Shown: one piece after another, positions 2,282-52,874 of the stretch
Layout: each line of letters starts with the position of its first letter
How positions within the stretch are numbered: position 1 is the first letter of the stretch
DNA from: an uncultured Gammaproteobacteria bacterium
GTDB lineage: Bacteria; Myxococcota_A; UBA796; JAJRTE01
Assembly (NCBI GenBank): GCA_964418585.1
Contig: CAYQMG010000089.1
Location: forward strand, 95,185 to 159,184
Reading direction: 5' to 3'
DNA: 64,000 bases
The notes under the pieces: model-generated
The model's input: the letters and a program-made list of their open reading frames with translations, nothing else
Database searches by the model: none
Told to the model about the DNA's origin: nothing
Program-made: the position numbers and the translations under genes

Positions 2282-2539
2282 ATGGATCCGGTGCAGGAAA
2301 CGGCTAGTCTGATGGAGTTGATGGTGAAGGCGCTGGTGGACTTGCCCGAGGCGGTCCGAATCCACGTGGTTTCGGGGACTCAGGCGGTCATTTACGAGGT
2401 CGCGGTGGACCCGGTGGATGTGCGACGGGTGATTGGACGGCGAGGTCGCACGGCGGATGCACTTCGTGAGATTTTGACCAACCTGGGGTCCAAGGCTGGG
2501 AGGCGTTTCATGCTGGAGATTGTGGAGCCCGAGCGGTGA
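2282..2539 (+). CDS. KH-domain RNA-binding protein (UPF0109/YlqC-like), paralog 1
   Basis: 85 aa; ATG at 2282 preceded by GGAAGGAGG; VIGRRGRTADALREIL core typical of small KH proteins; paralogous to the CDSs at 45921 and 46655. Confidence 0.8.
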   Translation: MDPVQETASLMELMVKALVDLPEAVRIHVVSGTQAVIYEVAVDPVDVRRVIGRRGRTADALREILTNLGSKAGRRFMLEIVEPER

Positions 2540-10683: not shown

Positions 10684-10704
10684 CGGGCTCTCCCCTCTGT
10701 TCCG

Positions 10705-11625: not shown

Positions 11626-11735
11626 GCTGGCATGATGCGTGAACCTGGATCGCGATTCAACGAAATTCCATCCTGGTCATCCGATTCCCAGATGTGACCC
11701 AGGGCCGGATGGCCTTCTCGAGCCGAGGAGAGTCC

Positions 11736-26246: not shown

Positions 26247-29200
26247 TCAGGAGAGGTCGATGTAGCAGTAGACGGGGAAGGGAGAGGCCGGGCGGATTCG
26301 CCAGGAGGTGGTGTGCAGCGTGTGCGCCTGGTTCACCGGGTGCTGATTGAAGTCGAAGCGAGGGTCGTGAACGGAGAAGAAGGCCACGCCCTGGTCCAGT
26401 CGGAGGGTGAGGCGTCGGTTCGGGTTGGACCACAGGATTTCGAGGGTGCGGTGGTGAGCGAGTTTTCGAGGGTGGTCTACCAGTTGGACCTGTGTCTTGG
26501 GGCGGAGGGTTGCGAGGAGGGAGGAGAGGACCTTTTCCTGGGTGGTTGGATTGGTCCAGTCATGGTGGATGAGTCTTGGGGAACGCCAGCCATCCTGCTG
26601 GACGGCGGTGGTGATGATTGAGAGGATGGTATCGGACGAGAGGGTGCCGAGTTTTTCGAGTCCCTGAAGGAGGAGGAACAGGCCGAGCGTGGAGAGTGGG
26701 CTTTTGACGTACCGGTCGGAGTAGGTGACCCGGCGTGCCGGGCCGGCCTGGAGTGCTCTGGCGGTACCGGGGTGAGTTTGTTGGACGAGTTTCCAGAAGT
26801 GGTGAGCGAACCGGGTACGGTTGTGGAACATGGGGTTGTCGTGGTTGATGACGAGTTCGTGCACGGTGCCCGGATCGGGGGGTTGGAGCTGGTCGGGGGA
26901 GAGTGGAGAGAGGTCGTCCGGGAGTGTCGGTGAGTTCAGGGTTGCGTGCACATTGGTGGCGTCCTGGCGTGTGTCGAGCCATGCGGGGCCTGGGAGGAGG
27001 GCGGCGTGGTCGTCGGTGGCGAAGGCGGTGACGGTGTCGTCGTGGTGGAGTTCTGCATAGGTTATTGTGGGGCTGTCGTTTTTCTGGTTGTGTTGGAGGA
27101 AGAGGTGCAACCTGGCGAATTCTGCGAGGTTGGCGAGTTGCCGACGGGTTTGCCAGTCGGCCTGGTCGAGGGCGGATGGGGGGAGGAGGAGGTCCACCTG
27201 GGTACCGGATTCGGCCATGTGGAGGAGGACGTGTCGTGCGTTCCAGGCGCCGAGGTCCCAATCGGCAGGGTTTCCCTGGAGTACGAACCGTGCTCGAGTC
27301 AAGGGGTGGCGCAGTACGACGCGCTGGATGGCCTGAATGGGGGATTGCCATTCCACGGTGGTGGCGTCTCCAAAGCACTTCAAGTCCTGAGGGAGTTCCA
27401 GCGCATGGAGCAACCGTTCGGAGAGGAATGTACGCGCTCGGTGCCGGTTGAGTTGTTTTCTTTCGTGCTGGGTATCGTGTCCGAGGAGGCAGGCGTGGCA
27501 GGCGGCGTCGCAGTGGTTGGGGCAGTCGAGGCGAGCGCGTGCGGCCTTGAGCAGGTGTGTGAGCATGGCCGGTGCCTCGGCGCAGAATCCGGCGCCGCCG
27601 TCGGCGGTGTCGTAGAGGATGACGGCCAGACAGGTGTGTGCTCCCTCGCGCCCGTGTGCCACGGTGCAGCCGATTTCCTCCTCCTCGACGCCCAGGGTTT
27701 CGGCGAGCGCGAGTTTCAGGGCCACGGCGATGGTGATGGCCTCCGATTCCTCCTGGAGCGGCATGCCGGTATGTGGGTTGAGGAAATGGAGTTCGAGCAC
27801 GTCGGTGATGGTGGTGGAGCCCAGGGCCAGGTGTCGCTTGATGGCGAACGGTTCCCCGTTGCCCTCGCAGAGGATTTCGGGGCCTTTTCTTCCGGACGAG
27901 TCGCGTCCTCCTCGCAGGCGTTTGTGCTGGCGCATGGCCTCGGGCAGTTCGGCCGAAGCCGGATTTTCAGGGTCCCAGGGCTCGGAGACGGTTCGACCGC
28001 ACCGGAGGCAGACGGCATAGCCGTGGCCGTGGGCACCGTGGCTGAGGTGGATGAGTTTGCCGTTGGGCGCGTGACGGAGGCGCACGACAGGGGGAGAACC
28101 GAACGGGACGAACGGGTTTTCTCCTGATGAGATCCAGGATTCCAGGGGGGGCATCCAGGGTTTGGCGCCCAGTTCCGTGCTTGCCTTGGAACGGATGTCG
28201 ACGGCAAAGCCGGAGGGGATGAGGAACTGGCGGTGGTGCAGGTTGGAGGAACCGCAGCAGGGGCAGGATTCCACCCAGGTGCGGCCAGCGGTGACCCATC
28301 CACACTGGAGGCAACGGGAACCCACCTGCAGGTCCTGGAGTTCGTTGATCAGATTCTCTGTGGCCTCTGGCGGGATGTGCCAGTTGAGGGTGACTCCCGC
28401 CGACCGATAGGCTCGACCGTCCAGCACCACTTCGAGCCCCGGTGCATATTCGTTCAAGGCCATTCGGAGTTCACGAGTGGGATAGCCGCGCAGGAGCGCC
28501 AGGTTGTCCTCTCGTTTTTCTGACGTTCGTTCCGGCCTGCTCGGGCGCCGACCTCTCTTCCTTCGCACCGCGAGTTCCTCGGCGGTGGTGGTGACGAAGG
28601 GGACCACGTTGGTGGGGAAACCATATCCAGGAAGGAACTGCCGTGTGGCAAGGTAGCCCAGGAGATACTCTTCCCGGTGGCGTTTCAATTGGCGCTGGAT
28701 GGCCAAGGCCACCGGTGAGCCATCCCGGTCTTCGGGTTCCAGCGCGTTCCATTCGGTTTGGAGCCCTTCCAGCGTGTTCAGGTATCCCCTTCGGGCCGCG
28801 TGCATGGATTCGGCCACGTCTTCCAGAAGGTCCTCGATGCGCGTTCTCTCCTTTATCGACCGCCTTCGCAGCACCTCGAGCCGGTATTGCAACTCGTCAC
28901 GAGCCGGTGCGGTTGCCTGGAGATACTCGAAAAACCGGTCGCATACGGAAGGGGCTTCTGAGTCGGCCTCGAAGAACCAGCCGCAATGAAGCTTTGGGAT
29001 GGCCTTGTCTCCGGCCGCCTGGTACTGAAGAAGGAAGTCGGTGAGACAGACCGCGTTCACGTGTCGCTGCACGATGGGTCCACTGTCCAGGCATACGTCG
29101 GTGACGTGGAGCGGCGTGGTGAAGGGCCACAGGGGATTGCGGAATACGGCCTGGTCGTGGGGAAGGTTGCGGCACACGGTCACGCTCACCGCTGTTCGTT

Positions 29201-32200
29201 CGCCTCGACGACCGGCCCGACCCACCCGTTGGAGGAAGTTGGCCGGGTTCGGGGGGGCGTTGTTCATCGACACCGCGGACAACCCACCGATGTCCACTCC
29301 GAGTTCCATGGTGGTGGAACAACTCAGCACATTGATGGAGCCGGCCTTGAACTCACGTTCGTAGCCCTGCAACGTCCCTGCAGGAAGCTGGGCAGAATGC
29401 TCGGCGACCCGAAAATAAAACCACCCCTCCACGATTCGGTCGGTAACCTCGTGCCACACACCGGCGCTCCGGAGTTGCCGCACCTGTTCGTCTTGGGCCA
29501 GCCATGCCCGGATTTGTTCGAGGCTCCAGGGCGTTCCGTCAAAAGCCCGTTTGAAGGCGAACGGGGGGCGGGGCATGGTGACCTTGACACACCGGGTGTC
29601 GTACGCCCAGGGGTCATTGGGTTGGAGCGGTGTGTGCCCTCGCAACGTCGTATCCAGGAGTTGGCCGGTCAGTGGGCAGATCCACGCCTCCTGGATCGGC
29701 TCGAGACATGCCTGTCGTTCCAGGTCGAGCTGGTATCCATCCTGGGTCTGGTGCAGGAGTCGGCGGATGGCTTGCCAGGCTTCGTGGAGAATCTCGTTCA
29801 CCTCCTCGCGGGTTTCCCTGTCGGAACCGAGACCGAAAGCCTGAACCAGGAGGGCGGCGAGGCGCGGTGGCCGGGCGGCCGTCATCCACTGGGGCCACGG
29901 TGTCCGGTGCCGCTCTCGTTTCTCGCCCTGGGGCAGGAGGTAGCTGGGACGGATCCGAGTCCCCATCCAGCGGAACAGCGCCGGTTCCATGGTGAGCGCG
30001 GTGTTGGCCCGAACGAAGAAGTCGAGACAGAGTTTCAGGAAATCCCGCCATGTCTGGAGTGTCTCGCCTCGAGCTTTCCAGGCAGCCGGAACACGGGTGA
30101 TCCGGGTGAGGCCGGGGTAGGTGAGTTTCACGAGTCCCAGGGTCTCCAGTGCGCGTCGGCGGGAAGGTCTCCGGGCGAACTCCCGCACGACCAGGCCTCG
30201 CGCCAGTGCTTGATGGTCCAGGTCGAAGGGATCGTAGGTGCTGCGCGCTGCGTGCATCCAGGAGATCTCCCGTGTTTTCGAAAGTTCCTGGATGGCGGTT
30301 CGGAAGCAGAGAGGTTCGGTCTGGGACAGGCTGTCAATCTCCTGGCGGAGTCGCTCGATGGTTTGGTCGAGCACCGTTCCACGGTCGCCCAGTTCTCGCT
30401 GGAGGGCGAGGAGGCGTCCGAGTTCCGCCTCTTTTTCCTCTCTTTTTTCCTGTTGGTCCGCCTGAGAGGTCCCAGACGTCGCAATGACCTGGGCGTAAAG
30501 AAAACTCCGAACGTAGTTGCGTTCCGAATCCCGCTGGGCCGCCGCTGCAAATCGGGCTGTGCCCTGGCGGCTGTCCGAGAACGTGATGAGTCGCCGACCG
30601 TCGGCGGGGCACCCGTTCCCGGTACGGTCGGCCGGGACCCATTCGAGCAGCCCAGGAAGGACCACGCTCTGGGTGAACTGGATGGCGTTTCGGAACGTTT
30701 TCCAGAAAGGGCGGAGGGACGGGCCCTTGTGGAGGCATCGCGGGCACTGAAGAGGTTCGGAGGCGGATTCCAAAGATTCGAGCACCAGGAAACGGGGGCC
30801 CGGGGTTCCCAGCTCCCCTGTTTTTGGATCGAGTGTTTCCAGGTCCGGAGAGGAGGGGTCTGGGGGCGGTGCGAGCAGGGCCGTGGCGTGGTGTTGGAGC
30901 GGAAAGTGCAATTCGGTACCCATTGGAGTGTCGGCAGGGTGTTCCGGTGCGGGGGACTCGTCGTCTTCTGGAGCGAACGGATCTTCCTCGTCGTCGGTGG
31001 CCGTGTCGCCCCGGTCCGGTGGGGGGCTGTTTGGAGGAAGGAAGCGGTCGGTGGCGTCCTGCTGCACCACGGTTCCTGCCAGGAAGATCTGGCTGCAGGT
31101 GTTGCACAGGACCAGTTCATACACGAGCGAGCCACAGGCCTTGCAGGTGTGGCGTTCGTTGAAGTAGACCGTTCCAAAAGGCCATTCCGAGGACTGGAGC
31201 GGGCGGTGCGTTTTCCCCGGGCACGCCGGGTTGATACAGGCCCAGAGCCCGGGCTGGGTCCGGGCAAACAGGTGCAAGCGTAGAGGCAGGAACGGGGTGC
31301 CATCCGGGCCTGTCGCGCTGCTCAACAGGTCCAGGAACCGGACGGTCTGCTTTCGGGCCTCGGTTTGCTGTCGTGCCGAAGGGCCGAACAGGGTCTGCGT
31401 CAGGTCCGAGAGGCGGGCGGGTCCTCGGGAGACGAAAGCGCTTCGAACCGTCCGTGCTGGGAGGGAGGAACAGAGTTTCTCGTAGCGTTCGTCCTGGGTA
31501 AGCGCGGAGAGGGCGTCCAGGTCCGGGAACGTGGTCTCGAGCGGGTCTTTGTCGGGTAGCCTCGGAATGTCGTGCCGACCCAGCACCACGTGGACCTGAT
31601 GATCCGGTTGGCCCGATACCGAAGCCAGGAAGCGCCGCAGCGCCTCTTCCGGGGTTCTCCCGTGGCGATCCTTGCCCTGGGACGCGATGGTGGCCGAGGT
31701 GGCGATGAACCGGACGTTCTCGGCCCGGACTTCGAAGGCGGTGAGCACACGACGAAGCAGGAGCGCCAGTTCCGCGGCCTGTGACCCCAGGTAGGTGTGC
31801 GCCTCGTCGATGACCACGTATTTGAGTCGGCCCCGGGAAAGCTCGAGGATCGGATGGTCGGCTGGACGAACCAGCATGTATTCGAGCATGGTCGCATTGG
31901 TGAGGAGGATGGGAGGAGGCGCTTTTCTGAGCGACTTGCGGTCCAGCACCTCCTCGGGCCGGTGGCGCTTCTCCGATTCCGGCAAATGGTCCGGGGTGTT
32001 GCCGTTGTAAAGGCAGAACCGAACCGTGCCGTCGAAGCCTCGAGTCCAGGCTGCCAGCCTGTCCTGCTGGCTGTTGATGAGCGCGTTGAGTGGGTAGAGA
32101 AACAGAGCCTGGACTCCGACCAGCGGCCGTCGCCGGTGCCTCGCCTGGAGGGCGAGATCGTTGAGAATCGGGATGAGGAAGCACTCGGTCTTCCCGCTAC

Positions 32201-32621
32201 CCGTGCCTGCACTCACGACCACTGACCGGGGCGGGTCACTCATCAGGTGTCGCCAGGCCTCCCGTTGGTGCAGGTAGGGGTGGATCGATCGCGCCAGTCG
32301 CTGCTCCCGCAGCGTTTCCGGCGGGCTGTCCAGGTAGGAGACCAGGGTGGCATCGAGTTCTCCCGTGTCGGCGAGGTCCTGGAGTGTTTCCGGGCCGGTC
32401 CGGTGGCCGAACTTGGCCTCGAACACCGGGTCGGAGAAGAGCGCGTTCTCGGTCCCGGGCGCGTGTTCGTAGGTGTCGGCGAGGAACTCCCTTAGGGGGC
32501 GGTTTCTGGGCGATAGATAGCTCAGCAAGGCCCGTCCGTACCGAGTGGTCAGGTTGTCCAGCAGGATGTTGAACTCGTTGGAACGCGATCGTTCGGAAGA
32601 AGGGAGATCTGGATTCGTCAT
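26247..32621 (-). CDS. Giant DExH-box SF2 helicase with Zn-ribbon insertions and DUF1998-like (MrfA-type Zn-binding) module; DruE-like
   Basis: Track ORF 26247..32666 (TTG) trimmed to ATG 32621 (MTNPDLPSS) preceded by AAGGAGAG. Motifs: Walker A SAGTGSGKTE, Ia YPLNALINSQ, II VVIDEAHTY, III ATSAT, VI QRVGRAGRRGE about 850 aa downstream; Cys clusters CINPACPGK...HTCKACG...CNTCSQ, CLQCGW...CPCCG, CLRCG, CPNHCDAACHAC; LPGYGFP and ILYDTADGGAGF as recalled for DUF1998. Confidence 0.85.
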   Translation of the reverse strand: MTNPDLPSSERSRSNEFNILLDNLTTRYGRALLSYLSPRNRPLREFLADTYEHAPGTENALFSDPVFEAKFGHRTGPETLQDLADTGELDATLVSYLDSPPETLREQRLARSIHPYLHQREAWRHLMSDPPRSVVVSAGTGSGKTECFLIPILNDLALQARHRRRPLVGVQALFLYPLNALINSQQDRLAAWTRGFDGTVRFCLYNGNTPDHLPESEKRHRPEEVLDRKSLRKAPPPILLTNATMLEYMLVRPADHPILELSRGRLKYVVIDEAHTYLGSQAAELALLLRRVLTAFEVRAENVRFIATSATIASQGKDRHGRTPEEALRRFLASVSGQPDHQVHVVLGRHDIPRLPDKDPLETTFPDLDALSALTQDERYEKLCSSLPARTVRSAFVSRGPARLSDLTQTLFGPSARQQTEARKQTVRFLDLLSSATGPDGTPFLPLRLHLFARTQPGLWACINPACPGKTHRPLQSSEWPFGTVYFNERHTCKACGSLVYELVLCNTCSQIFLAGTVVQQDATDRFLPPNSPPPDRGDTATDDEEDPFAPEDDESPAPEHPADTPMGTELHFPLQHHATALLAPPPDPSSPDLETLDPKTGELGTPGPRFLVLESLESASEPLQCPRCLHKGPSLRPFWKTFRNAIQFTQSVVLPGLLEWVPADRTGNGCPADGRRLITFSDSRQGTARFAAAAQRDSERNYVRSFLYAQVIATSGTSQADQQEKREEKEAELGRLLALQRELGDRGTVLDQTIERLRQEIDSLSQTEPLCFRTAIQELSKTREISWMHAARSTYDPFDLDHQALARGLVVREFARRPSRRRALETLGLVKLTYPGLTRITRVPAAWKARGETLQTWRDFLKLCLDFFVRANTALTMEPALFRWMGTRIRPSYLLPQGEKRERHRTPWPQWMTAARPPRLAALLVQAFGLGSDRETREEVNEILHEAWQAIRRLLHQTQDGYQLDLERQACLEPIQEAWICPLTGQLLDTTLRGHTPLQPNDPWAYDTRCVKVTMPRPPFAFKRAFDGTPWSLEQIRAWLAQDEQVRQLRSAGVWHEVTDRIVEGWFYFRVAEHSAQLPAGTLQGYEREFKAGSINVLSCSTTMELGVDIGGLSAVSMNNAPPNPANFLQRVGRAGRRGERTAVSVTVCRNLPHDQAVFRNPLWPFTTPLHVTDVCLDSGPIVQRHVNAVCLTDFLLQYQAAGDKAIPKLHCGWFFEADSEAPSVCDRFFEYLQATAPARDELQYRLEVLRRRSIKERTRIEDLLEDVAESMHAARRGYLNTLEGLQTEWNALEPEDRDGSPVALAIQRQLKRHREEYLLGYLATRQFLPGYGFPTNVVPFVTTTAEELAVRRKRGRRPSRPERTSEKREDNLALLRGYPTRELRMALNEYAPGLEVVLDGRAYRSAGVTLNWHIPPEATENLINELQDLQVGSRCLQCGWVTAGRTWVESCPCCGSSNLHHRQFLIPSGFAVDIRSKASTELGAKPWMPPLESWISSGENPFVPFGSPPVVRLRHAPNGKLIHLSHGAHGHGYAVCLRCGRTVSEPWDPENPASAELPEAMRQHKRLRGGRDSSGRKGPEILCEGNGEPFAIKRHLALGSTTITDVLELHFLNPHTGMPLQEESEAITIAVALKLALAETLGVEEEEIGCTVAHGREGAHTCLAVILYDTADGGAGFCAEAPAMLTHLLKAARARLDCPNHCDAACHACLLGHDTQHERKQLNRHRARTFLSERLLHALELPQDLKCFGDATTVEWQSPIQAIQRVVLRHPLTRARFVLQGNPADWDLGAWNARHVLLHMAESGTQVDLLLPPSALDQADWQTRRQLANLAEFARLHLFLQHNQKNDSPTITYAELHHDDTVTAFATDDHAALLPGPAWLDTRQDATNVHATLNSPTLPDDLSPLSPDQLQPPDPGTVHELVINHDNPMFHNRTRFAHHFWKLVQQTHPGTARALQAGPARRVTYSDRYVKSPLSTLGLFLLLQGLEKLGTLSSDTILSIITTAVQQDGWRSPRLIHHDWTNPTTQEKVLSSLLATLRPKTQVQLVDHPRKLAHHRTLEILWSNPNRRLTLRLDQGVAFFSVHDPRFDFNQHPVNQAHTLHTTSWRIRPASPFPVYCYIDLS

Positions 32622-32669
32622 CGTTCTCTCCTTTTCTGCGAGGAGACGGCCGGGTGAAAGGCGCAAGGG

Positions 32670-35600
32670 TCAGTCCGCCGCTGAACCGGAAGGGTAAGAT
32701 TTCTTTCGGCGCGTTCGTTTGTGCACCGCCACCGGACCCGCCCCAGCGCGTGCAGCGCTTGCTGGTTTGAAAGGACTCGGCTCGTTTTCCCACGGGGTTT
32801 CGGAGGGGAACGGAGGCAATTTCTCCTGGAACGCGGGCCATGGGCTTTTCCACCGTTCCCTGGCCAGCAGGATCAAGGCGAGTTGATATGCGGTTTCGAA
32901 GTATTCCGGATCGAATTCCTTGAACTCGCGGAGAAAGAAGATGACCCGGCGCTCGAGCCGTGTTCCGGAGACGGCCGCGGAGGCTGCCGCGGCCGGAGCG
33001 AAGACCACGGGCCTGGTGTAGCCGGGGACCAGATTCTTGTCGGTGAAGGGGGACAAGGGACTTTTCCCCAGCGGACCGTGTATGGCCTCTGTTTTCAGCG
33101 TGGTGAAAACCGGGCCGGCCGGGCAGCAGGGCCACTGGTCGGAAGCGTGGCGTTCGCGGAGTTCACGGACGGTATCCCGCAGCGAATCGTAGATGGGTTC
33201 CACCGGTCCGACACCACGGGCCGACAACACCTCGTTTTTCCGGCAGGGTGAATGCTGGATTCCCTCCTGTTCCGCCCACCTGCAGAATGGGATGGTCACC
33301 GTGGGAAGGAGGTTCTCCACCCGCTTGACGCCGTGGGTCAGGGTGCGCTCCACCAGGGTGGCCATCCCCGCGTCCCGGGCGTGCATGGCGGGTAGACAGG
33401 ATCGGTGGTATTGCTCGAAAGCGTTCTCCCAGGCGCCCAGGGGGACGAGTTCCCACATGAACGGGAAGCGCTCGAACAGGTCCCAGATGGCCTCGAAGTC
33501 AGGTTCGTGCATGGATCGAACCGCGGCCATGGCCACCACGTCGGGCATGTAGCTCATGCAGCGCAACACGTCGAACGTGGCGGGTGGGATGTCGGCGGCC
33601 ACCTCGAGGAACCCTGTGACGACGCGCCAGTCCTCGTCTCTCGGGTTGGCTGCCAGGGACCGGAGGGCCAGGGCGATGTGGTCCCAACGGGTTCTGGCAG
33701 GGTGTTGCTCCATGGCCGCAACCAAGGCACTGTCGACCCGGTCCAGGGTCTGTGAGACCCGGCCTGGAGGTTCGTCGACCGTCCAGGCGAGGGTGCGGCC
33801 TCGGTGCCACGCGCCATCTCGAGCCGTGATCAGCCAGGTGCCGGGTTCTCGTGATTCCGGTGCGAATCGCCAACGCGGTGTTCCGGCAGCGTCGTGTCCG
33901 ATGAATGGGAGCGTTTCCGTCTTGCTCACATTTTTCAGTGGTCGTGCCTCCACGGTCACCTCGTCGAGCGGTTGCCCGGTTGCGCCTGTCAGCACCACCT
34001 CCCCGCGGCTCGTGTCTCGTTGAAGGACCCAGTCGTATCGCCGGACCCGGATGCTGGTTCCTTGACCTGGCGTGCTGCCAACCTCGAACACCTGGAGGCG
34101 CACATCGGTGTCGTAGGTATCGCTCATTGCAAGCAGTCGCTCCACTGCCGGGAGCACGTGCCGGAGGGGGAGTTCGTGGAATCCCTCTCGGACTCGAGGC
34201 ACCGGTTGGGTGGTTTCCAGCCTGGTGCTGAGATCGGAACTGGACGCGGACAGGTAGTACCGTCCTGTGGTCGAGGGGGTGATGATTCGGAGGCGATGGC
34301 GTCCCAGTCTGGAGATGTGGATGGGGTGATCATGAGGGAGGGGGTCCGACTTTGCCGATTCGAACGAAGCCCGCTCCACAGGCCAGGGCAGACAAAGGTC
34401 GACCTCGGTCCCGAAATCGAGGCGCAGGTGAAGGTGCGGAAGGTGGGGTGCGACACAGGGCACGTGGACGGTGTGGCCCTCGTTGGTACGGGAGATGTAC
34501 ACGCCCTCGGCCGCGCGAACCAGGCCGACCCTTCGGAGAAAGCGGCTGGAGAGTGTGATTGCGCCGTCCCTCTCCCGGTCACCCACGGTCATGGTCCACC
34601 TGAAATCGGGAGGAAGAACGGTCAACCTATTCTCCCACGCCACCTCCTCCCTCTCTCCGTAGAGACGAAACCGGAGCGTCCCGAACAGGGTTTCGTCCCA
34701 CGGGCGCCAGGATCCATCGGGGTGCCGGACCCGGATCCTCTGGGTGTTCACCGGCGCACGTCGGGCCGAACTCAGGGTTCGATACAGGTCGGGCAGCCCC
34801 AACCAGAGAGTGCTTGAGGTGTCCGGAAGGTCGAGTCGCGCCCCGGAGAAGCTGTACTCCCCTTCTTCGGCTTCGGCCGCAGTGCGAACCCTCACCTGGT
34901 CTCCATTCCGGTGAAAGGTCACGTCCCCCTGGACACGGTAAGCCGTCCTGTCCAGGGGGGCGCCCATGAAGGATGCACCGACCCCCTGGTACGTCTTCGG
35001 AGACCAGTCTGCGCCGGCCAGCACCAGGACCTCCTCCGAGCGCACCTTGCAACTCCCCGTGGCAAGAAGCTCCCACGCTCCCGGTGCTTGCGTATCCTGG
35101 CGGAAGGTCCAGGGAAGGTCAGGGAGTGCCGAGGCCCCCTCGAGCCCGGCGACCTTGGCCAGCACCTCGCTGCCACTGGAAATCTCGAGCAGAATCTCGC
35201 CTGTTTCCTCGAGAACCAGCCCACGTGCTCCGGTGGTGGTCAAGATCCAGTAGGGATTGCCCTGCTCGTGTCGACGGAGGAGCCGGCCGTATGCAGCGAC
35301 CTCGGAGTGTTCTGGAGAGTACATACGGAGTCCCAGGCGTCGCGAGCCAGGGTCCAGCTTTGTGCCGAGAAAGGACTCGAGCACGGCCGGCTCGATGCGT
35401 CGCGCGGCCGACAGGCGTCGTTCGAGGTGCCACTTACCGTTGCGCTCCACCAACCAGGTCGCCATGCGAATCCGGTCCTTCGCCCCGCGCGCCACGTCGC
35501 TCGCCGTGGATACGAGGCCGCGCAGAAACGCCAGGGCCGTGTCGTTTTCGAGCAGAATGGGCATGGTGTCCCGCCAGGCGGGATCATGGAGGTCCAACCA

Positions 35601-36242
35601 GGCGACCGGGTCCTGCTTGTCGTCCAGGGGGTAACGGGAGCGGAGGGACCAGACCTGGGCTACCAGGTCAGCCGCCAGCGCCTCGGTCTCCTCGCTTCGA
35701 AGGGATACCGGCAGCAGGTGCGCGCGGTCCGCCGCCACCTGGAACAGCTCCTCAGACGATTCGGTCCCGCCGTATCCGTACACGCGGAAATCTTCCATGA
35801 TCGCGCGGAAGTAGGCGTGTAGCTTCGACCCCTCCTGTTGGAGCAGCTTCAGGGGCATGCCGCCCTCGCATGCGATGGTCACCAGGTAGAGTTGCCTTCC
35901 GTTTCGGGACAGGACAGGCCTGTCCCACCGTTCGAGCCCGGTCCGGATCACGGCAACCAGTGTGCTCCAGTTCCATTGCTCCTTGCCAATGCTGCATTTG
36001 AGTCCATCCCAGGACCATGCACCGTGCTCATGACGTCGTCGCCACCACTCGGCACCCGCGAGACAGATCATGGCCGCCTCGTCAGGTGAGATCCGGGTGG
36101 AGGGCAGGGAAGACAGCCGCGCACGCAGTCCGGCCAGGATGGCGTGCCATTCTTCCCGGGTACACCGGTAGGCATAAAGCGGACGCCCGTCCGGTTCGGG
36201 TGGTCTGTCCACGTGTCGCTCCAGAAACTCTCTCAGCTTCAT
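32670..36242 (-). CDS. Giant (~1190 aa) protein of unknown function, operon partner upstream of the helicase; DruH-like by position and size
   Basis: Track ORF 32670..37925 trimmed: its upstream 560 codons are antisense to the aldehyde dehydrogenase gene. ATG 36242 (MKLREFLERH) preceded by AAGGAGGGAG; alternative ATG 36374 (MQVLSAG) also has GAGGAG. No recognisable catalytic motifs. 48-bp gap to helicase start. Confidence 0.65.
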   Translation of the reverse strand: MKLREFLERHVDRPPEPDGRPLYAYRCTREEWHAILAGLRARLSSLPSTRISPDEAAMICLAGAEWWRRRHEHGAWSWDGLKCSIGKEQWNWSTLVAVIRTGLERWDRPVLSRNGRQLYLVTIACEGGMPLKLLQQEGSKLHAYFRAIMEDFRVYGYGGTESSEELFQVAADRAHLLPVSLRSEETEALAADLVAQVWSLRSRYPLDDKQDPVAWLDLHDPAWRDTMPILLENDTALAFLRGLVSTASDVARGAKDRIRMATWLVERNGKWHLERRLSAARRIEPAVLESFLGTKLDPGSRRLGLRMYSPEHSEVAAYGRLLRRHEQGNPYWILTTTGARGLVLEETGEILLEISSGSEVLAKVAGLEGASALPDLPWTFRQDTQAPGAWELLATGSCKVRSEEVLVLAGADWSPKTYQGVGASFMGAPLDRTAYRVQGDVTFHRNGDQVRVRTAAEAEEGEYSFSGARLDLPDTSSTLWLGLPDLYRTLSSARRAPVNTQRIRVRHPDGSWRPWDETLFGTLRFRLYGEREEVAWENRLTVLPPDFRWTMTVGDRERDGAITLSSRFLRRVGLVRAAEGVYISRTNEGHTVHVPCVAPHLPHLHLRLDFGTEVDLCLPWPVERASFESAKSDPLPHDHPIHISRLGRHRLRIITPSTTGRYYLSASSSDLSTRLETTQPVPRVREGFHELPLRHVLPAVERLLAMSDTYDTDVRLQVFEVGSTPGQGTSIRVRRYDWVLQRDTSRGEVVLTGATGQPLDEVTVEARPLKNVSKTETLPFIGHDAAGTPRWRFAPESREPGTWLITARDGAWHRGRTLAWTVDEPPGRVSQTLDRVDSALVAAMEQHPARTRWDHIALALRSLAANPRDEDWRVVTGFLEVAADIPPATFDVLRCMSYMPDVVAMAAVRSMHEPDFEAIWDLFERFPFMWELVPLGAWENAFEQYHRSCLPAMHARDAGMATLVERTLTHGVKRVENLLPTVTIPFCRWAEQEGIQHSPCRKNEVLSARGVGPVEPIYDSLRDTVRELRERHASDQWPCCPAGPVFTTLKTEAIHGPLGKSPLSPFTDKNLVPGYTRPVVFAPAAAASAAVSGTRLERRVIFFLREFKEFDPEYFETAYQLALILLARERWKSPWPAFQEKLPPFPSETPWENEPSPFKPASAARAGAGPVAVHKRTRRKKSYPSGSAAD

Positions 36243-36506
36243 CCCACTCCCTCCTTGGACGGCACGCGCCTCGACCACCCCGGGACCGGTCCGGGCCGGG
36301 GGGGCTGAAGGCGGGAAAGCGTGGTATTCCCCACCACCTTGCGCCCTGACCGGTCCCGCGGACAAGACCTGCATGGTCTCCTCTTTCAGGTATTGGCGAT
36401 CAGCAACGAGGAACTGACATCGACCGGCGCACCAACTCGAGTTTGACATCCCGGAGCAGGCTGACGAGAATAGCGAAGCGTGCTCGTGTGAAAGGAGGCC
36501 TCCGTC

Positions 36507-37946
36507 ATGTTGAAGGAATCGTATCCGTGCTACGTGGCCAACCAGCCGGTGACTCCGAACCAGGACCTCGAGGTACGAGACAAGTACTCCGGCCAGACCG
36601 TGACTCGGGTCCCCCTGGCCGGACCGGATCTCATCGAAACCGCCATCGGGAAGGCAGCAGCAGCCGTCCCGGCGATGCGGGAACTGCCTGCCTATCGTCG
36701 GGCCAGTGTCCTGAACCACTGTCTCCAGAGGTTCGAGGAGCGCTTCGACGAACTCGCCATCGCACTCTGTGTGGAAGCCGGAAAGCCCATCCGGGACGCC
36801 CGCGGTGAAGTGACACGGCTCATCGACACCTTCCGGATTGCGGCCGAGGAAGCTGTGCGGCTCAACGCTGATTTCCTCCCTCTGGACATCTCGCCTCGAG
36901 CCGATGGCTACGAGGGCATCACCCGCCGTGTGCCGGTCGGGGCCTGCGCGTTCATCAGCCCATTCAACTTCCCTCTCAACCTCGTCGCCCACAAGGTCGC
37001 TCCCGCAATCGCCGTGGGATGCCCGTTCGTGCTCAAGCCCGCCTCGTTCACCCCGGTCGGGGCCTTGATCATCGGCGAAATCCTCGCAGAGACCGACCTC
37101 CCTGAAGGCGCATTCAGCATCCTCCCCGCGCGGCGACAGGACGCATGGCCGCTGGTCACCGACGACCGGTTGAAACTCCTCTCCTTCACCGGATCCCCGG
37201 AGGTCGGCTGGTCCCTCAAGGCCCAGGCGGGCAAGAAAAGAGTCGTCCTCGAACTCGGGGGGAACGCCGGGTGTATCGTTGACGAGGGCGCAGACCTGGA
37301 ACGGGTCGCGGATCGGATTACCTTCGGCGCTTTCTACCAGTCCGGACAGTCTTGCATCAGTGTCCAGCGCATCCTGATCCACGATTCCCTCTACGATGAC
37401 CTCGTCCCCATGCTCGTGGAACGGGCACGCGCATTGAAACCTGGAAACCCTCAGCACGAATCGGTCTCCCTCGGCCCCATCATCAGCGAGGCGGACGCAA
37501 TCCGTATCGCAACCTGGATCGACGAGGCTGTACAACACGGGGCACGGATCCTCTGTGGCGGTCACCGAAACGGCTCGTTCGTCGAGGCCACGCTCCTCGA
37601 AAACGTCGACCCCAAGGACAAGGTGAGCTGCGCCGAGGTCTTCGGTCCCGTCGCCACAGTCCAGCGGTTCTCCAACTTCCAACAGGCCGTCCAGATCGTC
37701 AATGACAGCAGGTACGGACTCCAGGCCGGCGTCTTCACTCGAGACCTGAACCGGGCCTTCTACGCATGGAACCATCTCGAGGTCGGAGGCGTCGTCATCA
37801 ACGACATCCCGTCCATGCGCGTGGACAGCATGCCTTACGGCGGCGTCAAGGACAGCGGGCTGGGCCGGGAAGGGGTCCCCTACGCCATGGAGCACATGAC
37901 CGAGACCCGCCTGATGGTGCTCCATCGAGCGGGCCGACTGTCGTAA
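36507..37946 (+). CDS. NAD(P)-dependent aldehyde dehydrogenase family protein
   Basis: 479 aa; AAGGAGG RBS; ALDH signatures (FTGSPEVG, ELGGNAG, catalytic Cys in QSGQSCISVQR). Confidence 0.9.
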   Translation: MLKESYPCYVANQPVTPNQDLEVRDKYSGQTVTRVPLAGPDLIETAIGKAAAAVPAMRELPAYRRASVLNHCLQRFEERFDELAIALCVEAGKPIRDARGEVTRLIDTFRIAAEEAVRLNADFLPLDISPRADGYEGITRRVPVGACAFISPFNFPLNLVAHKVAPAIAVGCPFVLKPASFTPVGALIIGEILAETDLPEGAFSILPARRQDAWPLVTDDRLKLLSFTGSPEVGWSLKAQAGKKRVVLELGGNAGCIVDEGADLERVADRITFGAFYQSGQSCISVQRILIHDSLYDDLVPMLVERARALKPGNPQHESVSLGPIISEADAIRIATWIDEAVQHGARILCGGHRNGSFVEATLLENVDPKDKVSCAEVFGPVATVQRFSNFQQAVQIVNDSRYGLQAGVFTRDLNRAFYAWNHLEVGGVVINDIPSMRVDSMPYGGVKDSGLGREGVPYAMEHMTETRLMVLHRAGRLS

Positions 37947-43526: not shown

Positions 43527-45665
43527 ATGCAAGATACCCCGTCGATGAAACCCGGCCGCCGGTTCGGCCGATACCAACTGCTCGAACCGCTTGGGTCGGG
43601 CGGCATGGCCGATGTCTACAAGGCCGAACTCGAGGGCGTGGGCGGGTTCGGCAAGATCGTGGCCCTGAAAGTGTTCCGGGAGCACCTCTCCAGGGACCCC
43701 CAGTTCGCCCGGACCTTTGTGAGCGAGGCACGCCTCGGCGGGTTCCTCGACCATCCAAACATCATCGCCACGCTCGACTTCGGCCGCCAGGACGGTCGTC
43801 TGTTCATGGCCATGGAGTATGTTCGCGGTATCACGCTCCAGCAGGCGATTCTCGAGCACCGGCGGGCCGGACAACCGCTCCCCGTCCCCCTCGTACTGGA
43901 ACTGTTCCGGCAGGTGTGTGACGCGCTCGAGTACGCCCACGGGGCCACGGACCACGGGGGAAACCCGCTCCGGATGGTGCACCGGGATCTCAAGCCCTCC
44001 AATCTCCTCATCGACCTGCTTGGCACGGTCAAGGTCGCAGACTTCGGCGTGGCCCGGGCCGAGAGCAATGTCGATCAGACCCTGGTGCCGGGAACGCTCA
44101 AGGGCACGGTCCGATACATGTCCCCGGAGCAGGCTCGAGGCGGAACCGATATCGACCGCCGAAGCGACATCTTCGCCCTGGGACTCGTGCTGTACGAGTG
44201 TGTCGCGCTCCGCCCTTGTTACGATGGAACCACGCTCGAGCAAATCCTGGCGCAGGCCCAGGAGGCTCGAGTGGAGGCCCGGCTGGCCGCGCTCCCGGAG
44301 ATTCCTGGTCGAGACGCGGTCCTGGCTGTCCTCGCCCGGGCCGTGGCACGAGACGTGTCCCGTCGCTTTCAAACCTGTGGAGAGATGCGTGCCGCCCTGG
44401 TGGCCGCCCTTCAGCGGTTCGGTCCCCGGCCCGACGTGGCCGCCTGGGTGAAGACACGCACCGGCCTCGTCCCGACCACGCAGGGCCCGCTCGAGGCGAG
44501 GCACCATGCGACCACCGTGGCCCGGCCATTCCCCCCGGCCGGAAACCCACCAGGAGACGAGGTGCTCGAGCCGACCGCGCTCTCTCCTGCGCCCGGGGCC
44601 GGTGCCGCAGGAGACCCGACCGTGCGCGTCGACCCCAACAGGACCGTGGTGAGCAGAAAAAGGGGGTCTCCGGCACAAGCTCGAGAAACGGTGGTGCGTC
44701 CCTATTTTCCAGCGCTTGGTCATCCCACCCGGATTGATCGGCCCTGGACCATGGACAACACCCTCCGGCAGGAGGTGGGGGCCAATCAATCCGCTCTCAC
44801 CCCGACCGCCGGCGTTCCTCCCGCCACACTCCCGGCTGCCCCTCCGCTCGACCCCACGGTTCCGCTGGCTCGCCGAAATGCTCCCGGCAGTGTCGATGTG
44901 TTTCAGAATGCAACCGTTGTCATGGGGGGGCGACGAATGGGGCCGGAAACAGGGGCCGGGCTCCCATCCGACTCCTCCACGGCCGCCTCTGTCTCCCCGG
45001 GAGGGCCTCGCCAGGGCCGTATCAACGAGTCGCGGGGACGCCGGTGGTTCTTTTGGGGCGCCCTTCCACTCGTCCTGGTCGCCCTGCTTTTCTGGGGCCG
45101 CTTTTCCAGTAGGCCGGGCGGTCCGGCACTTCGGGAAACAGGAGGAGCGTCCACCGAGGCCTCGACAGGGTCCGGGCCCGGTGCGTTCCTGGAGGCGGAT
45201 GAGGCTCCGTCCGAAACCCCGGAGGCATTGGAGCCCGGTGATCGTACCGGGCAACCGAGGGGGCCGGAGAGGTCCTCCTTGCATGGCCGGACCGGAACTG
45301 ACCCGAACCAGCGGGCTGTCATCGGCCGCAGTCATCGAACCGAGGGGGCATCGAGCGGATCAACCCGGACCGCGAGCAAGCCGGAGGAACCGGTGCGACC
45401 CCCAGGGCCTGCGCCCGTGCCCGGACCCGGCGCGTCGGGGACCCTCTATCTCTCGTCACGTCCTCCCGCACGGATCACCATCGACGGGCAGGCTGCGGAA
45501 CGTTTTCCCGTCCAGGATCTGCCGGTGGAGCCGGGGGCGCACCGTATCGAGTTTGCCTGGCCTGACAGCACCAGGGACGAGCACGTCGTCCAGGTGGAGG
45601 CTGGTCGAACGGTGCGGTGTGTGGCGGAGCAGGCGTCGGGGCGGATTCGGTGTCGGAGTGATTGA
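43527..45665 (+). CDS. Ser/Thr protein kinase with Pro/Gly-rich linker, TM segment and C-terminal beta-rich domain
   Basis: Track ORF 43392..45665 trimmed to ATG 43527 (MQDTPSMKPGRRFGRYQLLEPLGSGGMADVYKA); Hanks motifs HRDLKPSNLLI, DFGVAR; TM WFFWGALPLVLVALLFW; C-terminal YLSSRPPARITIDGQ...PGAHRIEF looks PEGA-like. Confidence 0.85.
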   Translation: MQDTPSMKPGRRFGRYQLLEPLGSGGMADVYKAELEGVGGFGKIVALKVFREHLSRDPQFARTFVSEARLGGFLDHPNIIATLDFGRQDGRLFMAMEYVRGITLQQAILEHRRAGQPLPVPLVLELFRQVCDALEYAHGATDHGGNPLRMVHRDLKPSNLLIDLLGTVKVADFGVARAESNVDQTLVPGTLKGTVRYMSPEQARGGTDIDRRSDIFALGLVLYECVALRPCYDGTTLEQILAQAQEARVEARLAALPEIPGRDAVLAVLARAVARDVSRRFQTCGEMRAALVAALQRFGPRPDVAAWVKTRTGLVPTTQGPLEARHHATTVARPFPPAGNPPGDEVLEPTALSPAPGAGAAGDPTVRVDPNRTVVSRKRGSPAQARETVVRPYFPALGHPTRIDRPWTMDNTLRQEVGANQSALTPTAGVPPATLPAAPPLDPTVPLARRNAPGSVDVFQNATVVMGGRRMGPETGAGLPSDSSTAASVSPGGPRQGRINESRGRRWFFWGALPLVLVALLFWGRFSSRPGGPALRETGGASTEASTGSGPGAFLEADEAPSETPEALEPGDRTGQPRGPERSSLHGRTGTDPNQRAVIGRSHRTEGASSGSTRTASKPEEPVRPPGPAPVPGPGASGTLYLSSRPPARITIDGQAAERFPVQDLPVEPGAHRIEFAWPDSTRDEHVVQVEAGRTVRCVAEQASGRIRCRSD

Positions 45666-45920
45666 AACATGGTCGGTCAGACCCACAGCGGGCCGTGGGA
45701 AGGACCCGTATGGGTTTCAGGTTCACCCGGGAAATGACAGAATAGACATCGTATGTTGATAGAGTTATAGTATGGTTGCGATTGTTCCGTTCATGGATAC
45801 GCGGAACGCGTGGCTGTCGTTGTCCGCAAGTGGCCGCGTCGGAGTTCGGAAGGAAGTCGTGGCATGCCCCACGGGAGAGTGCTGAACATCATAGCTCCAT
45901 TTCGAGTGAGGAGAAAGAAG

Positions 45921-46175
45921 ATGGAATCGAACGAGTTGAGCGACATTGGGACTCTTGTGCTCACGCTGGTCCGTGCCCTGGTCGATCGGCCGGAAGAGGT
46001 GGTCGTCAATGAAATCGAAGGCTCGCAGGCGACCGTTCTCGAGGTTCGGGTTGCGAAGAGCGACCACGGCAAGCTGGTTGGCAGGCGAGGAAGAACGGCC
46101 AATGCAGTCCGGGAGTTGTTGACCGGATATGGCGGCAAGCGCAACAGGAGGTATCTGCTGGAGATCATCGAGTAG
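45921..46175 (+). CDS. KH-domain RNA-binding protein (UPF0109/YlqC-like), paralog 2
   Basis: Track ORF 45810..46175 trimmed to ATG 45921 with GAGGAG RBS; 84 aa; highly similar to paralog 3. Confidence 0.8.
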   Translation: MESNELSDIGTLVLTLVRALVDRPEEVVVNEIEGSQATVLEVRVAKSDHGKLVGRRGRTANAVRELLTGYGGKRNRRYLLEIIE

Positions 46176-46654
46176 TTCCTACCTGGAATTTCTTTCCACG
46201 AGCAGCGTGTCGCGACCCCCGGGACTTTTGTGGTGCAGGACCGCGGAGGGCTCGGGGCGTGACGTATTGAGGACAGGTCGGTTCGCCCTGGCGGCGGGCT
46301 CGAGGTCTGGGCAAGACCAGGGGGGGGCCGTGCGATTCGGCGCGGGACGAGGTGGTTGTCCTGTCGAGTTCGTTCGATTGGGAGCAGGGGAGAGGTGTGG
46401 CCTGGCGGACCTGCCCAGGGGGAGAGGCGGTTGGGCATCGGATTCCAGAATTCTTTGGCTTTTTGATCGCATGTTCCACTGGATCTCAACTCGAGATCCC
46501 GGTATGGTGTGCCCAGTGCTTGTGTTCAGCCCGCGGCCCTCCGGGAGTCGTCGCCGGTATCCCCGGGTCCTTTGGCCGGCGTCGGACGACTGGAGCGGGA
46601 GGAGGTGCCTGTCGGGATTGACAATCACCCAACGGCCAAAGGAGAACGGAAGCC

Positions 46655-46909
46655 ATGCAAGAGAGAACGCTGAGTGACATTGGAATGTTGATGATGACGC
46701 TGGTTCAGGCCCTGGTAGATCATCCGGGCGAAGTGGTAGTCAATGAAATAGAGGGGACGCAGTCCACGGTGATCGAGGTCCAGGTGGCCAGGTCGGATCA
46801 CGGGAAGCTCATCGGACGGAAGGGTCGTACTGTGGCTGCGATTCGAGAACTTCTTGTGGACATGAGTGGAAAGCGGCGTCGTAGGTTCATGCTTCAGATA
46901 CTGGAATAG
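46655..46909 (+). CDS. KH-domain RNA-binding protein (UPF0109/YlqC-like), paralog 3
   Basis: 84 aa; AAAGGAG RBS; highly similar to paralog 2 (LSDIG.L..TLV.ALVD.P.EVVVNEIEG.Q.TV.EV.VA.SDHGKL.GR.GRT). Confidence 0.8.
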   Translation: MQERTLSDIGMLMMTLVQALVDHPGEVVVNEIEGTQSTVIEVQVARSDHGKLIGRKGRTVAAIRELLVDMSGKRRRRFMLQILE

Positions 46910-47230
46910 TGTCGGTGGCGTCGGGACGGGTCCTGTCCGGTCGGGGAGGCTTCGGCTTGTTCGGGGAGAACCGGGGGTCGGAGGGGGGATGGCGGACGGG
47001 ACGCGGTGCCGGTTGAGACCGGCGCCTGCCCCTTCCGGGCGCCCTCGAGGCGCCCGATTTTCCCTGTCTTTTGCGAACGCCACTGGTTTCGATGTTCGAG
47101 CCGGGTCCTTGCGTTCCATCCTGACAAGAGACGGTATCGGCCACTGCCGCCCGGCAGCAGGTTGCCTCGAGGGGTCTGGGGCGAAAGCTTGCTGATCCAC
47201 GGAGCACTTTCCTTGACAATCGTGGGACGG

Positions 47231-48229
47231 ATGGGTATGAGAGTCTACGGTTTGTCTACCCACCGCCATCACGGGGAGTTGCCGGCCTTGACCAGAGCGG
47301 GAAAGAAGCGCGACAGCCGAACAGGCGACAGCAGCACGACGTTGCTTCCGGCGCCTGCCACGTCTCAGGCAATCGTCGCCCAGGATCTCTTGTCCCGGTA
47401 CATGGCGGAGATACGCAAGTATCCACTCCTCGATGCCAAGGAAGAGCAGAAGCTCACCATGGCCTACAAGGAGACCCGGGATCCCAAGATAGGCTACCGG
47501 CTCATCACGGCCAATCTCAGGCTGGTGGTCAAGATCGCATTTGAATACCGTCGCTCCTGGACCAACGTGCTCGATCTGATCCAGGAAGGCAACATGGGGC
47601 TGGCCCAGGCGCTGGAGAAGTTCGATCCCATGCGCGGGATTCGGTTCACCAGCTATGCCCAGTACTGGATCCGGGCCTACATCCTCCAGTACATCATGAA
47701 CAATATCAGCCTGGTGCGGATTGGAAGCACCCGGTCAGGGCGGAAGCTCTTCTACCAGCTTCAGAAGGAGCGAAAGAAGTTGCTTGCCCAGGGGATCAAT
47801 CCAGCCCCCAAGTTGCTCGCCGAACGGCTCGATGTGCCGGAGGAAGAGGTGGAGTGGGTGAGCGCTCGTATCTCCAACCGTGACATTTCCCTCGACGCTC
47901 CGGTTGGTACCGATTCCGACGGTCGGTCCGTGTCGGAACTTATTTCCGACGAGGACCATGCCGACCCGGAGTCCGAGGTGGGGACCAAGGAGGCGGCTGA
48001 GAAACTCCGGTTGGCCCTCGAGGCCTTTGGAGACACCTTGACCGATGAGCGGGACAAGACCATCTGGACCAGGCGGCTTCTGAGCCAGGACCCGGTCAGC
48101 CTGGCGGAGCTGGGCCAGCAGTTCGGAGTCAGCAAGGAGCGTATTCGACAGCTCGAGGAGCGGCTCAAGAACCGGGCGCGAGCCTTCCTGCTCGATGCAC
48201 TCGGAGACGAGGTGACCATCCAGTTCTGA
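47231..48229 (+). CDS. rpoH: RNA polymerase sigma-32 factor (RpoH family)
   Basis: Sigma70 regions 2-4 (DLIQEGNMGL, FTSYAQYWIRAYI) and RpoH box GRKLFYQLQKERKKL. Start uncertain: track ORF starts at 47006; candidates are ATG 47231/47237, TTG 47342 or ATG 47402. Confidence 0.75.
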   Translation: MGMRVYGLSTHRHHGELPALTRAGKKRDSRTGDSSTTLLPAPATSQAIVAQDLLSRYMAEIRKYPLLDAKEEQKLTMAYKETRDPKIGYRLITANLRLVVKIAFEYRRSWTNVLDLIQEGNMGLAQALEKFDPMRGIRFTSYAQYWIRAYILQYIMNNISLVRIGSTRSGRKLFYQLQKERKKLLAQGINPAPKLLAERLDVPEEEVEWVSARISNRDISLDAPVGTDSDGRSVSELISDEDHADPESEVGTKEAAEKLRLALEAFGDTLTDERDKTIWTRRLLSQDPVSLAELGQQFGVSKERIRQLEERLKNRARAFLLDALGDEVTIQF

Positions 48230-50065: not shown

Positions 50066-50267
50066 GCTTGTCCCCAATCCTTGTGAATCGACCAGCAATT
50101 CGGTCGACTTTTTGCCACGGTACCACGGAACGGGATGGTTGGACAAGGGAGGGCTCGTGACAGGAGCGCTTGACGGAGTTGCGCTGGTGTCTACGTTGAT
50201 AGACGGATACATCAAGACAGACATAACGACACATTGTGATATCAGTGTGCCTGAAAGAGGGGATACG

Positions 50268-52874
<2,607 letters not shown>

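Follow-up and report, generated by a model that had tools for sequence, protein, structure and literature searches.

The question raised by this locus is whether two small KH-domain genes in tandem near a sigma factor of the RpoH type, with a third copy elsewhere in the window (the whole stretch of 64,000 nucleotides that was analysed), form a stress-linked module or are simply further copies of a common family. In bacteria that have no Hfq or ProQ, KhpA and KhpB are increasingly recognized as global RNA-binding proteins. To our knowledge, nearly all the work on these proteins concerns single-copy genes in Firmicutes, Fusobacteria, Deinococcus and Campylobacterota. The KhpA literature that was consulted described no paralogue pairs, and the search found no paper joining KH-domain proteins and rpoH in Myxococcus.

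The first-pass annotation of this DNA had reported three KH-domain genes of 84 or 85 amino acids, and all three open reading frames were found at the positions that it gave:

2282 to 2539, plus strand: KH3, 85 amino acids, a KhpA-family paralogue from a separate, wider subfamily; GXXG loop GRRG, with the motif ...GSKAGRRF
45921 to 46175, plus strand: KH-A (KH1 in the first-pass annotation), 84 amino acids, a KhpA-family type II KH protein; GXXG loop GRRG at residues 54-57, A-type signature YGGKRNRRY
46655 to 46909, plus strand: KH-B (KH2 in the first-pass annotation), 84 amino acids, KhpA family; GXXG loop GRKG, B-type signature DMSGKRRRRF

Their amino acid sequences matched the Pfam family PF13083 (KH_KhpA-B) with E values of 8e-19 (KH-A), 2e-16 (KH-B) and 9e-16 (KH3). 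The corresponding scores of 67.7, 60.2 and 58.1 bits lie above the cut-off of 32.1 and place the three proteins in the family. A sequence search matched KH-A to the KhpA structure 7xqc in the PDB (E 1.3e-9). The AlphaFold model of KH-A (pLDDT 92) contains helices at residues 8-20, 46-53 and 55-74 and strands at 28-33, 37-43 and 77-83. When this model was submitted to Foldseek, the top match was KhpB/EloR (9lrg), and the KH domains of S3 and Era were also found, with weak E values of about 4e-3. The three genes are KhpA-family paralogues, each coding for a single type II KH domain with an intact GXXG loop. The best NCBIfam matches were the KH-domain equivalogs PRK00468, PRK01064 and PRK02821, with scores below the respective cut-offs (73.5 vs 106 for KH-A, 71.9 vs 85 for KH-B and 65.5 vs 85 for KH3). 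Searches with the E. coli S16 and RimM sequences produced no matches in the 64-kb window or in the related loci of the A/B clade described below. Since the scores are below the equivalog cut-offs and the genes are not linked to rpsP, the copies are to be regarded as family members, not as canonical KhpA orthologues. A strong Shine-Dalgarno sequence precedes each KH gene. Those of the tandem genes could be read directly upstream of the start codons, GAGGAG at 45908-45913 (7 nt before the ATG of KH-A) and AAGGAG at 46639-46644 (10 nt before the ATG of KH-B), in agreement with the earlier claim that each has its own ribosome-binding site.

The members of the tandem pair had been called highly similar, which is overstated. 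KH-A and KH-B share 65% identity at the protein level and 66% at the DNA level, and the DNA similarity ends about 12 nt upstream of the start codons; KH-A and KH3 share 45% identity. The values for the tandem genes indicate an old duplication and not a recent one. Besides the pair of the window, protein searches and context look-ups identified tandem KH pairs in four other lineages: L004 (grouped with L005 and L093), L006 (with L007 to L011), L186 (with L187 and L188) and L189 (with L190 and L191). The window itself is a segment of a metagenomic contig (ENA ERZ27262694; JGI 3300028908). The closest genome, L012, is a MAG labelled Myxococcota bacterium Dive96_bin1.27. It has a single KH gene of the A type, 94% identical to KH-A; KH-B is not present at this locus, and was either lost or relocated elsewhere.

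An alignment of all the copies separated the two members of the pair. The first genes and the single gene of L012 have an aromatic residue at position 70, Asn75 and the signature [YF]GGKRNRR[YF]. In the second genes position 70 is Leu or Met, as part of the motif [LM][SG]GK..., and the basic pattern differs (SGKRRRRF, GGKRHRRY, GGKNRRRY). These signatures were consistent across all the tandem pairs, those of the window, L004, L006, L186 and L189. Orthologues of KH-A were accordingly recognized in L012, L006, L004, L186 and L189, and those of KH-B are the second genes of L006, L004, L186 and L189 together with P0002. These assignments are based on signature residues and gene order, not on a supported tree, because a protein of 84 amino acids carries a weak phylogenetic signal. 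The presence of position-specific signatures in five lineages indicates that the duplication took place before at least five uncultured Myxococcota lineages separated and that both copies were retained. The comparison thus supports the view that the tandem KH pair is a genuine conserved module.

The genes that follow the pair, and the promoter-like site in front of the first of them, are:

47213 to 47241, plus strand: promoter-like site TTGACA-N17-TATGAG of the sigma factor gene, with identical hexamers and spacing in L012
47342 to 48229, plus strand, start uncertain between 47231 and 47342: RpoH-like (sigma-32 family) sigma factor; best match TIGR02392, with Pfam regions 1.2, 2, 3 and 4
50268 to 52874, plus strand: ClpB disaggregase; 1376.6 bits to TIGR03346, above the cut-off of 1232.1

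The best NCBIfam match of the sigma factor, TIGR02392 (rpoH_proteo), scored 231 bits where the cut-off is 323. Its RpoH-box region reads GRKLFYQLQ and has 5 of 9 residues in common with the consensus QRKLFFNLR. The protein is best called RpoH-like. The orthologous sigma genes align from about 47333, and the block conserved in L012 starts at 47204. This alignment and the promoter-like site that L012 shares at 47213-47241 indicate that the gene probably starts near 47342 rather than at 47231, which makes the gap between KH-B and the sigma gene about 430 bp long. The 321 bp reported before is correct for a start at 47231 and is too short for the likelier one.

The KH pair, the RpoH-like sigma factor and ClpB follow one another in this order in three of the tandem lineages, those of the window, L186 and L189. 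In L186 the genes for arginase, CHAD and Ppx-GppA lie on the opposite strand and are separated by about 0.9 kb from KH-A and KH-B; an FG-GAP/MopE gene, again on the opposite strand, comes next, and then the genes for a 305-amino acid sigma factor and ClpB. From Ppx onwards, L189 is arranged in the same way. The sigma factor of L186 is 73.6% identical to that of the window and 73.4% identical to that of L012. At the DNA level the KH genes of the window and L186 align, as do the sigma genes (47381-48225 with 9150-9994, 72%) and the clpB genes (50249-52298 with 10283-12333, 70%), and L189 aligns with the same blocks of the window, with about 70% DNA identity for sigma and ClpB. In the L012 genome KH-A precedes the same sigma factor. 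There, blastn aligned 45835-46179 of the window with 3916-4259 at 81% and the sequence from 47204 onwards at 79%, and the counterpart of the intervening 1 kb or so of the window (spacer, KH-B, second spacer) is about 100 bp long. Genes for Ppx or arginase are also found upstream of the pair in L006 and L004. The upstream genes of the window and L012 differ from those of the other lineages: no ppx, CHAD or arginase gene was found upstream of the pair in the window, where a Ser/Thr kinase and an RCC1/MopE protein are encoded. Downstream of the L004 pair lie lpdA and pyruvate dehydrogenase genes and not a sigma factor or ClpB.

The general layout, divergent ppx/CHAD/arginase genes, KH-A, KH-B, an inserted gene in some lineages, the RpoH-like sigma factor and ClpB, is therefore partly conserved. 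A stress-related neighbourhood is supported mainly by the order from the pair to ClpB, which has outlived several local rearrangements. At the same time, the relatives in which this order is conserved are fairly close (about 65-80% identity in coding DNA), and common descent alone could account for the synteny. The first-pass annotation had proposed that the tandem copies were linked to stress on account of their neighbours, and what can be upheld of this is the proximity to the RpoH-like sigma factor and ClpB, which recurs in L186 and L189, and that of KH-A to the sigma factor in L012. This conserved neighbourhood suggests that the pair may have a role in post-transcriptional control under proteotoxic or heat stress.

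The same proposal had included KH3, which lies beside two divergently oriented genes:

890 to 1261, minus strand: Hsp20-domain gene, identified by an NCBIfam domain match
1313 to 1849, minus strand, probable start near 1765: Hsp20-domain gene, identified in the same way

The Hsp20/Hsp14 domain matches had E values of 1e-15 and 4e-15 and were under the equivalog cut-offs. The adjacency is real in the window and was found nowhere else. KH3 has 35 relatives in its subfamily, with identities from 93 to 43%. In the closest one for which the context is available (L172, 91% identical) only the coding region and 18 nt upstream align with the KH3 locus, and no hsp20 gene was found; nor was there one beside any other KH3-type gene inspected. 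Their neighbours include PhdYeFM/PIN/PemK toxin-antitoxin modules and PRiA4_ORF3 (L175), DUF4007, BrxC/PglY and PAPS reductase genes (L178), a TIR_2-AAA_35 gene (L179) and an XRE regulator (L181), and another KH3-type gene adjoins Mur ligase and DUF547 genes. A conserved KH3-hsp20 linkage was therefore rejected, as the contexts in the relatives are unrelated. KH3 belongs to a different, wider subfamily without stable neighbours.

A census of KH genes in the genome and metagenome loci of relatives showed how common such copies are. When the E. coli S16 sequence served as the query, 106 of 164 KH genes were located within 1.5 kb of rpsP, which agrees with the linkage that the first-pass annotation had given for the canonical gene. 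Another 33, many of them from Desulfobacterales, "Deltaproteobacteria" and Myxococcota MAGs, had at least 1.5 kb of upstream sequence, no rpsP and unrelated neighbours. None of the 33 was near hsp20, rpoH or clpB in tblastn searches, in which the rpoH query was out of frame. Standalone khpA-like genes with unrelated neighbours are thus ordinary in Desulfobacterota and Myxococcota. The copies studied here are additional members of the known KhpA family, and what is specific to this locus is the conserved A/B pair and its neighbourhood.

The sequences between and around the tandem genes include the following elements:

45743 to 45771, plus strand: sigma-70-type promoter-like site TAGACA-N17-TATAGT upstream of KH-A, 10 of 12 matches, 0.3 expected in shuffled sequences
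45835 to 45920, plus strand: proximal KH-A leader, conserved only in the closest relative, L012; folding z-score +0.9
46176 to 46654, plus strand: non-coding A-B spacer, 479 bp, with no conservation and no detectable element
47036 to 47056, plus strand: terminator-like hairpin with 8 GC pairs and a following ATTTTCC, located 127 nt downstream of the KH-B stop codon

The length that had been given for the A-B spacer proved exact, and its non-coding nature is reflected in a flat GC content by codon position (0.68/0.60/0.64, vs 0.64/0.39/0.74 in KH-A). A 182-amino acid open reading frame placed there by the public annotation has no Pfam match. The spacer is about 120 bp long in L186, about 300 bp in L189 and about 345 bp in L004 and L006, and that of the window aligned with none of these. 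More generally, blastn and MAFFT at permissive settings found no alignment of spacers or leaders with those of other lineages, five lineages being covered; the upstream sequence common to the window and L012 is limited to the 86 nt of leader directly before KH-A and to the promoter-like site, which reads TGGACA-N17-TATATT at the equivalent place in L012. No k-mer or motif was shared across nine leaders. Rfam searches of the window and seven related loci gave no match at the gathering score (the only sub-threshold match was che1, E 3.9), and the folding energies could not be told apart from those of shuffled sequences, with z-scores of +0.21 (479-bp spacer), -0.02 (46910-47230) and +0.89 (KH-A leader). 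The first-pass annotation had looked to the long spacers for conserved structured RNA, and had itself named a lack of spacer conservation in relatives as an outcome that would speak against its proposal. With every one of these tests negative, the structured-RNA idea is not supported. The gaps around the KH genes are fast-evolving intergenic DNA of variable length, and the long spacers appear to be ordinary intergenic DNA.

Other candidates considered for these regions were also discarded. For a degraded third KH gene or a hidden open reading frame, tblastn with word size 2 yielded only E values above 0.7, tblastx between spacers returned noise and GC3 was flat; for a mobile repeat, there was no match to the spacer elsewhere in the window. 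A suggestive half-site of the CIRCE/HrcA operator, GAGTGCTGA, is present in the KH-A leader, and no full CIRCE site was found with up to 3 mismatches. A scan for E. coli-type sigma-32 promoters (CTTGAAA-N12-16-CCCCAT) found none upstream of any KH, hsp20 or clpB gene, and no covariance model of ROSE, fourU or the other Rfam thermometers matched upstream of the KH genes. The terminator-like hairpin is the only such site in 45500-47500, a region where 1.3 are expected by chance.

Taken jointly, the observations are best explained by KhpA-family paralogues that include an old A/B pair near the RpoH-like sigma factor and ClpB, for which we infer KhpA-like dimeric RNA binding, and we regard this reading as probable. 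It has to be weighed against the view that the genes are generic, redundant KhpA paralogues with no connection to stress, and that the proximity of the pair to rpoH and clpB, and of KH3 to hsp20, is inherited or accidental synteny in a narrow clade. The 33 rpsP-free genes are what this view predicts, with their unrelated neighbours and none of the three stress genes detected near them by tblastn (with the out-of-frame rpoH query), and it is also in line with the unconserved KH3-hsp20 link, the L004 locus devoid of a downstream sigma factor or ClpB, and promoter-like sites that are sigma-70-like, with no heat-shock promoter or CIRCE. However, the order from the pair to ClpB was kept in the window, L186 and L189, and that of KH-A and the sigma factor in L012, although the upstream genes, the inserted FG-GAP gene and the spacers all changed. 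Furthermore, A and B were kept with distinct signatures in five lineages, contrary to simple redundancy. On balance, we consider the generic-copy account unlikely, while giving it real weight.

We find it improbable that KH3-type genes, and perhaps some of the KH-A type, belong to the accessory gene content of variable or mobile regions, such as defence islands, toxin-antitoxin clusters or large mobile elements, and not to the core stress genes. The toxin-antitoxin, BrxC/PglY, TIR_2-AAA_35 and XRE genes beside the KH3 relatives of L175, L178, L179 and L181 are of the kind expected in such regions, and a KH-A-like gene (71%) was found on a 184-kb contig among small unknown open reading frames, an AcrVA2-like gene and an IS605 TnpB. 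Nevertheless, the KH-A/KH-B pair has a stable chromosomal neighbourhood. No KH copy and no neighbour in L183 had a PHROG match, and 2.9 million viral contigs contained only three distant matches (35-44%), on which grounds a phage origin of the family was also rejected. Even less credence can be given to the idea that the true feature of interest is RNA encoded in the spacers, either cis-regulatory or small (for example RNA thermometers, leaders bound by KH proteins for autoregulation, or an sRNA gene), which we hold to be very improbable. It draws on the length of the gaps (479 bp in the window, 0.9-1.2 kb upstream of KH-A in L186 and L189, about 1.2 kb in L175), on the 86-nt KH-A leader, which is about 80% identical in L012 and could form a CUCC/GGAG pairing at the Shine-Dalgarno sequence, and on a 31-nt motif common to both L006 leaders. 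These features are outweighed by the negative Rfam and folding results given above, the lack of any alignable block between lineages except in the near-identical window/L012 pair, the lack of a motif common to the leaders, and an A-B spacer that shrinks to about 120 bp in L186. The presence of conserved structured RNA in the spacers is thus largely refuted.

The reading as an old, differentiated KhpA-family pair can be extended to a possible mechanism. KhpA forms homodimers, and heterodimers with KhpB, via helices alpha1 and alpha3, and in the pneumococcal protein I61 is critical and Y63 and S64 are at the dimer interface (PMC6403258; PMC13015501). In our alignment, R58 and R64 of KH-A correspond to R53 and R59 of pneumococcal KhpA, and positions 68 and 70, which discriminate A from B, flank the equivalents of I61-S64 in helix alpha3. 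Their location beside the interface is compatible with A-B heterodimers, or with separate A-A and B-B dimers, that would differ in RNA specificity. The most likely function of KH-A and KH-B is dimeric single-stranded-RNA binding. Each KH gene would be transcribed separately from a sigma-70-type promoter, its mRNA carrying a leader and a strong Shine-Dalgarno sequence, and the proteins would dimerise through alpha1 and alpha3 as KhpA does elsewhere. The two GXXG loops of a dimer could then read two short single-stranded RNA motifs, and the choice of partner (A-B, or A-A and B-B) would set the RNA specificity. A role of the pair in heat-shock control is hypothesized from the neighbourhood only. 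The most specific version, in which a heterodimer of bare KH domains stands in for KhpA-KhpB and tunes the adjacent RpoH-like sigma factor, ClpB or both post-transcriptionally, for example through the translation or stability of the rpoH mRNA, seems to us distinctly improbable.

At present these results are a comparative-genomics lead only, and they come from uncultured organisms. Even so, a differentiated tandem pair offers a natural test of whether pairing between KH paralogues can diversify RNA specificity, and its location beside an RpoH-like sigma factor and ClpB a natural test of KhpA-type proteins in stress regulons. If true, the two-subunit reading would link KH-domain RNA-binding proteins to the control of the heat-shock regulon in a Myxococcota lineage.

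Among known systems, the nearest is KhpA itself (YlqC/UPF0109), known from S. pneumoniae, C. difficile, Fusobacterium, Deinococcus and others. The proteins described here share with it a size of about 80 amino acids, a single type II KH domain, the GXXG loop and a conserved helix alpha3, GRxGRTaxAiRel, including the arginines aligned to pneumococcal R53 and R59. They differ in that their genes are not between rpsP and rimM, and that there are three copies, two of which form a conserved tandem A/B pair beside an RpoH-like sigma factor and ClpB. The standalone khpA-like genes of Desulfobacterota and Myxococcota MAGs belong to the same family, lie likewise outside the ribosomal-protein operon and have their own flanking intergenic DNA. 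Unlike the tandem pair, each occurs as a single copy, with 50-62% identity to KH-A and unrelated neighbours. The khpB gene normally sits with yidC and rnpA, and khpA and khpB are normally unlinked, whereas the genes for KH-A and KH-B are adjacent. The resemblance to the KhpA-KhpB (EloR/Jag) system is that two different KH proteins could pair through helix alpha3 and so extend RNA recognition, and the positions that distinguish A from B lie next to the interface residues of KhpA (PMC6403258). KH-B differs from KhpB in being a bare KH domain with neither Jag_N nor R3H, and the heterodimer that we infer here would be built of two such domains.

The public gene calls include an ORF between KH-A and KH-B, the tandem KhpA-family genes of the window:

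46129-46677, + strand, ORF of 182 aa that runs across the entire KH-A/KH-B spacer and into the genes on either side

The ORF had no Pfam match, and the codon-position GC is flat across the part that corresponds to the spacer. The call is very likely spurious. In L006, a related locus, the leaders of both genes of the pair contain a 31-nt motif, CTGTTCCAGATCTGTCRTGGAWTTTGCAGC, that includes TTCCA-N9-TGGAA:

L006 2561-2591 and 3202-3232, copies of the motif in the KH-A and KH-B leaders

The two copies share 90% identity (E 3e-6), and the motif was not found when looked for in the window and the other lineages. This arrangement suggests an operator or promoter common to KH-A and KH-B in the L006 lineage.

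Polyphosphate-related genes (Ppx-GppA, and CHAD in L186) are conserved in relatives on the upstream side of the KH pair, in divergent orientation; none of them is present in the window:

L186 1336-5115; L189 1429-2991; L006 759-2372, polyphosphate-related genes 5' of the pair

The gap between these genes and KH-A is gene-free and unusually long (0.4-1.16 kb) in the three loci, and no alignment was obtained between the gaps of the different lineages. A KH-A-like gene, 71% identical, was located on two 184-kb metagenomic contigs:

L183/L184 6001-6270, KH-A-like gene

The KH-A-like gene comes directly after a giant gene whose product has an InPase domain and is 2278 aa or longer, and 3' of the KH-A-like gene there are tightly packed small ORFs without assigned function, beyond which are found an AcrVA2-like gene, a MerR/HTH_17 gene and an IS605 TnpB. 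The region, which gave no PHROG matches, may be a large mobile element.

A giant gene pair of the window (26247-37925, - strand) is assigned, on the basis of its PADLOC matches, to the Druantia type III anti-phage system:

26247-32666, - strand, DruE3, 2139 aa (2055 bits), with DEAD, Helicase_C and MZB/DUF1998 domains
32670-37925, - strand, DruH3, 1751 aa (306 bits)

The DruH3 match is confined to residues 564-1689 and the protein therefore has about 560 additional N-terminal residues.

Upstream of KH3, the third paralogue, the sequence is strongly G-rich:

2030-2125, + strand, tract with 52 G vs 13 C between hsp20 and KH3

A distance of 160-250 nt separates the tract from the KH3 start, and a canonical G-quadruplex motif occurs within it (2072-2089). 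GC skew is 0.6 in the tract and, in the 300-bp windows surrounding it, ranks among the highest of the window. At two loci of KH3-type relatives, about 480 bp are duplicated in tandem (L175 2061-3010 and L176 4558-5544), with 71% identity between the copies, within a gene-poor stretch of about 1.2 kb upstream of the KH3-type gene. In a third, L172, the locus of the KH3-type gene is flanked by short direct and inverted repeats:

L172 704-781, 4958-5043 and 5220-5314, repeats of 64-87 bp, 83-95% identity

These short repeats resemble miniature repeat elements.
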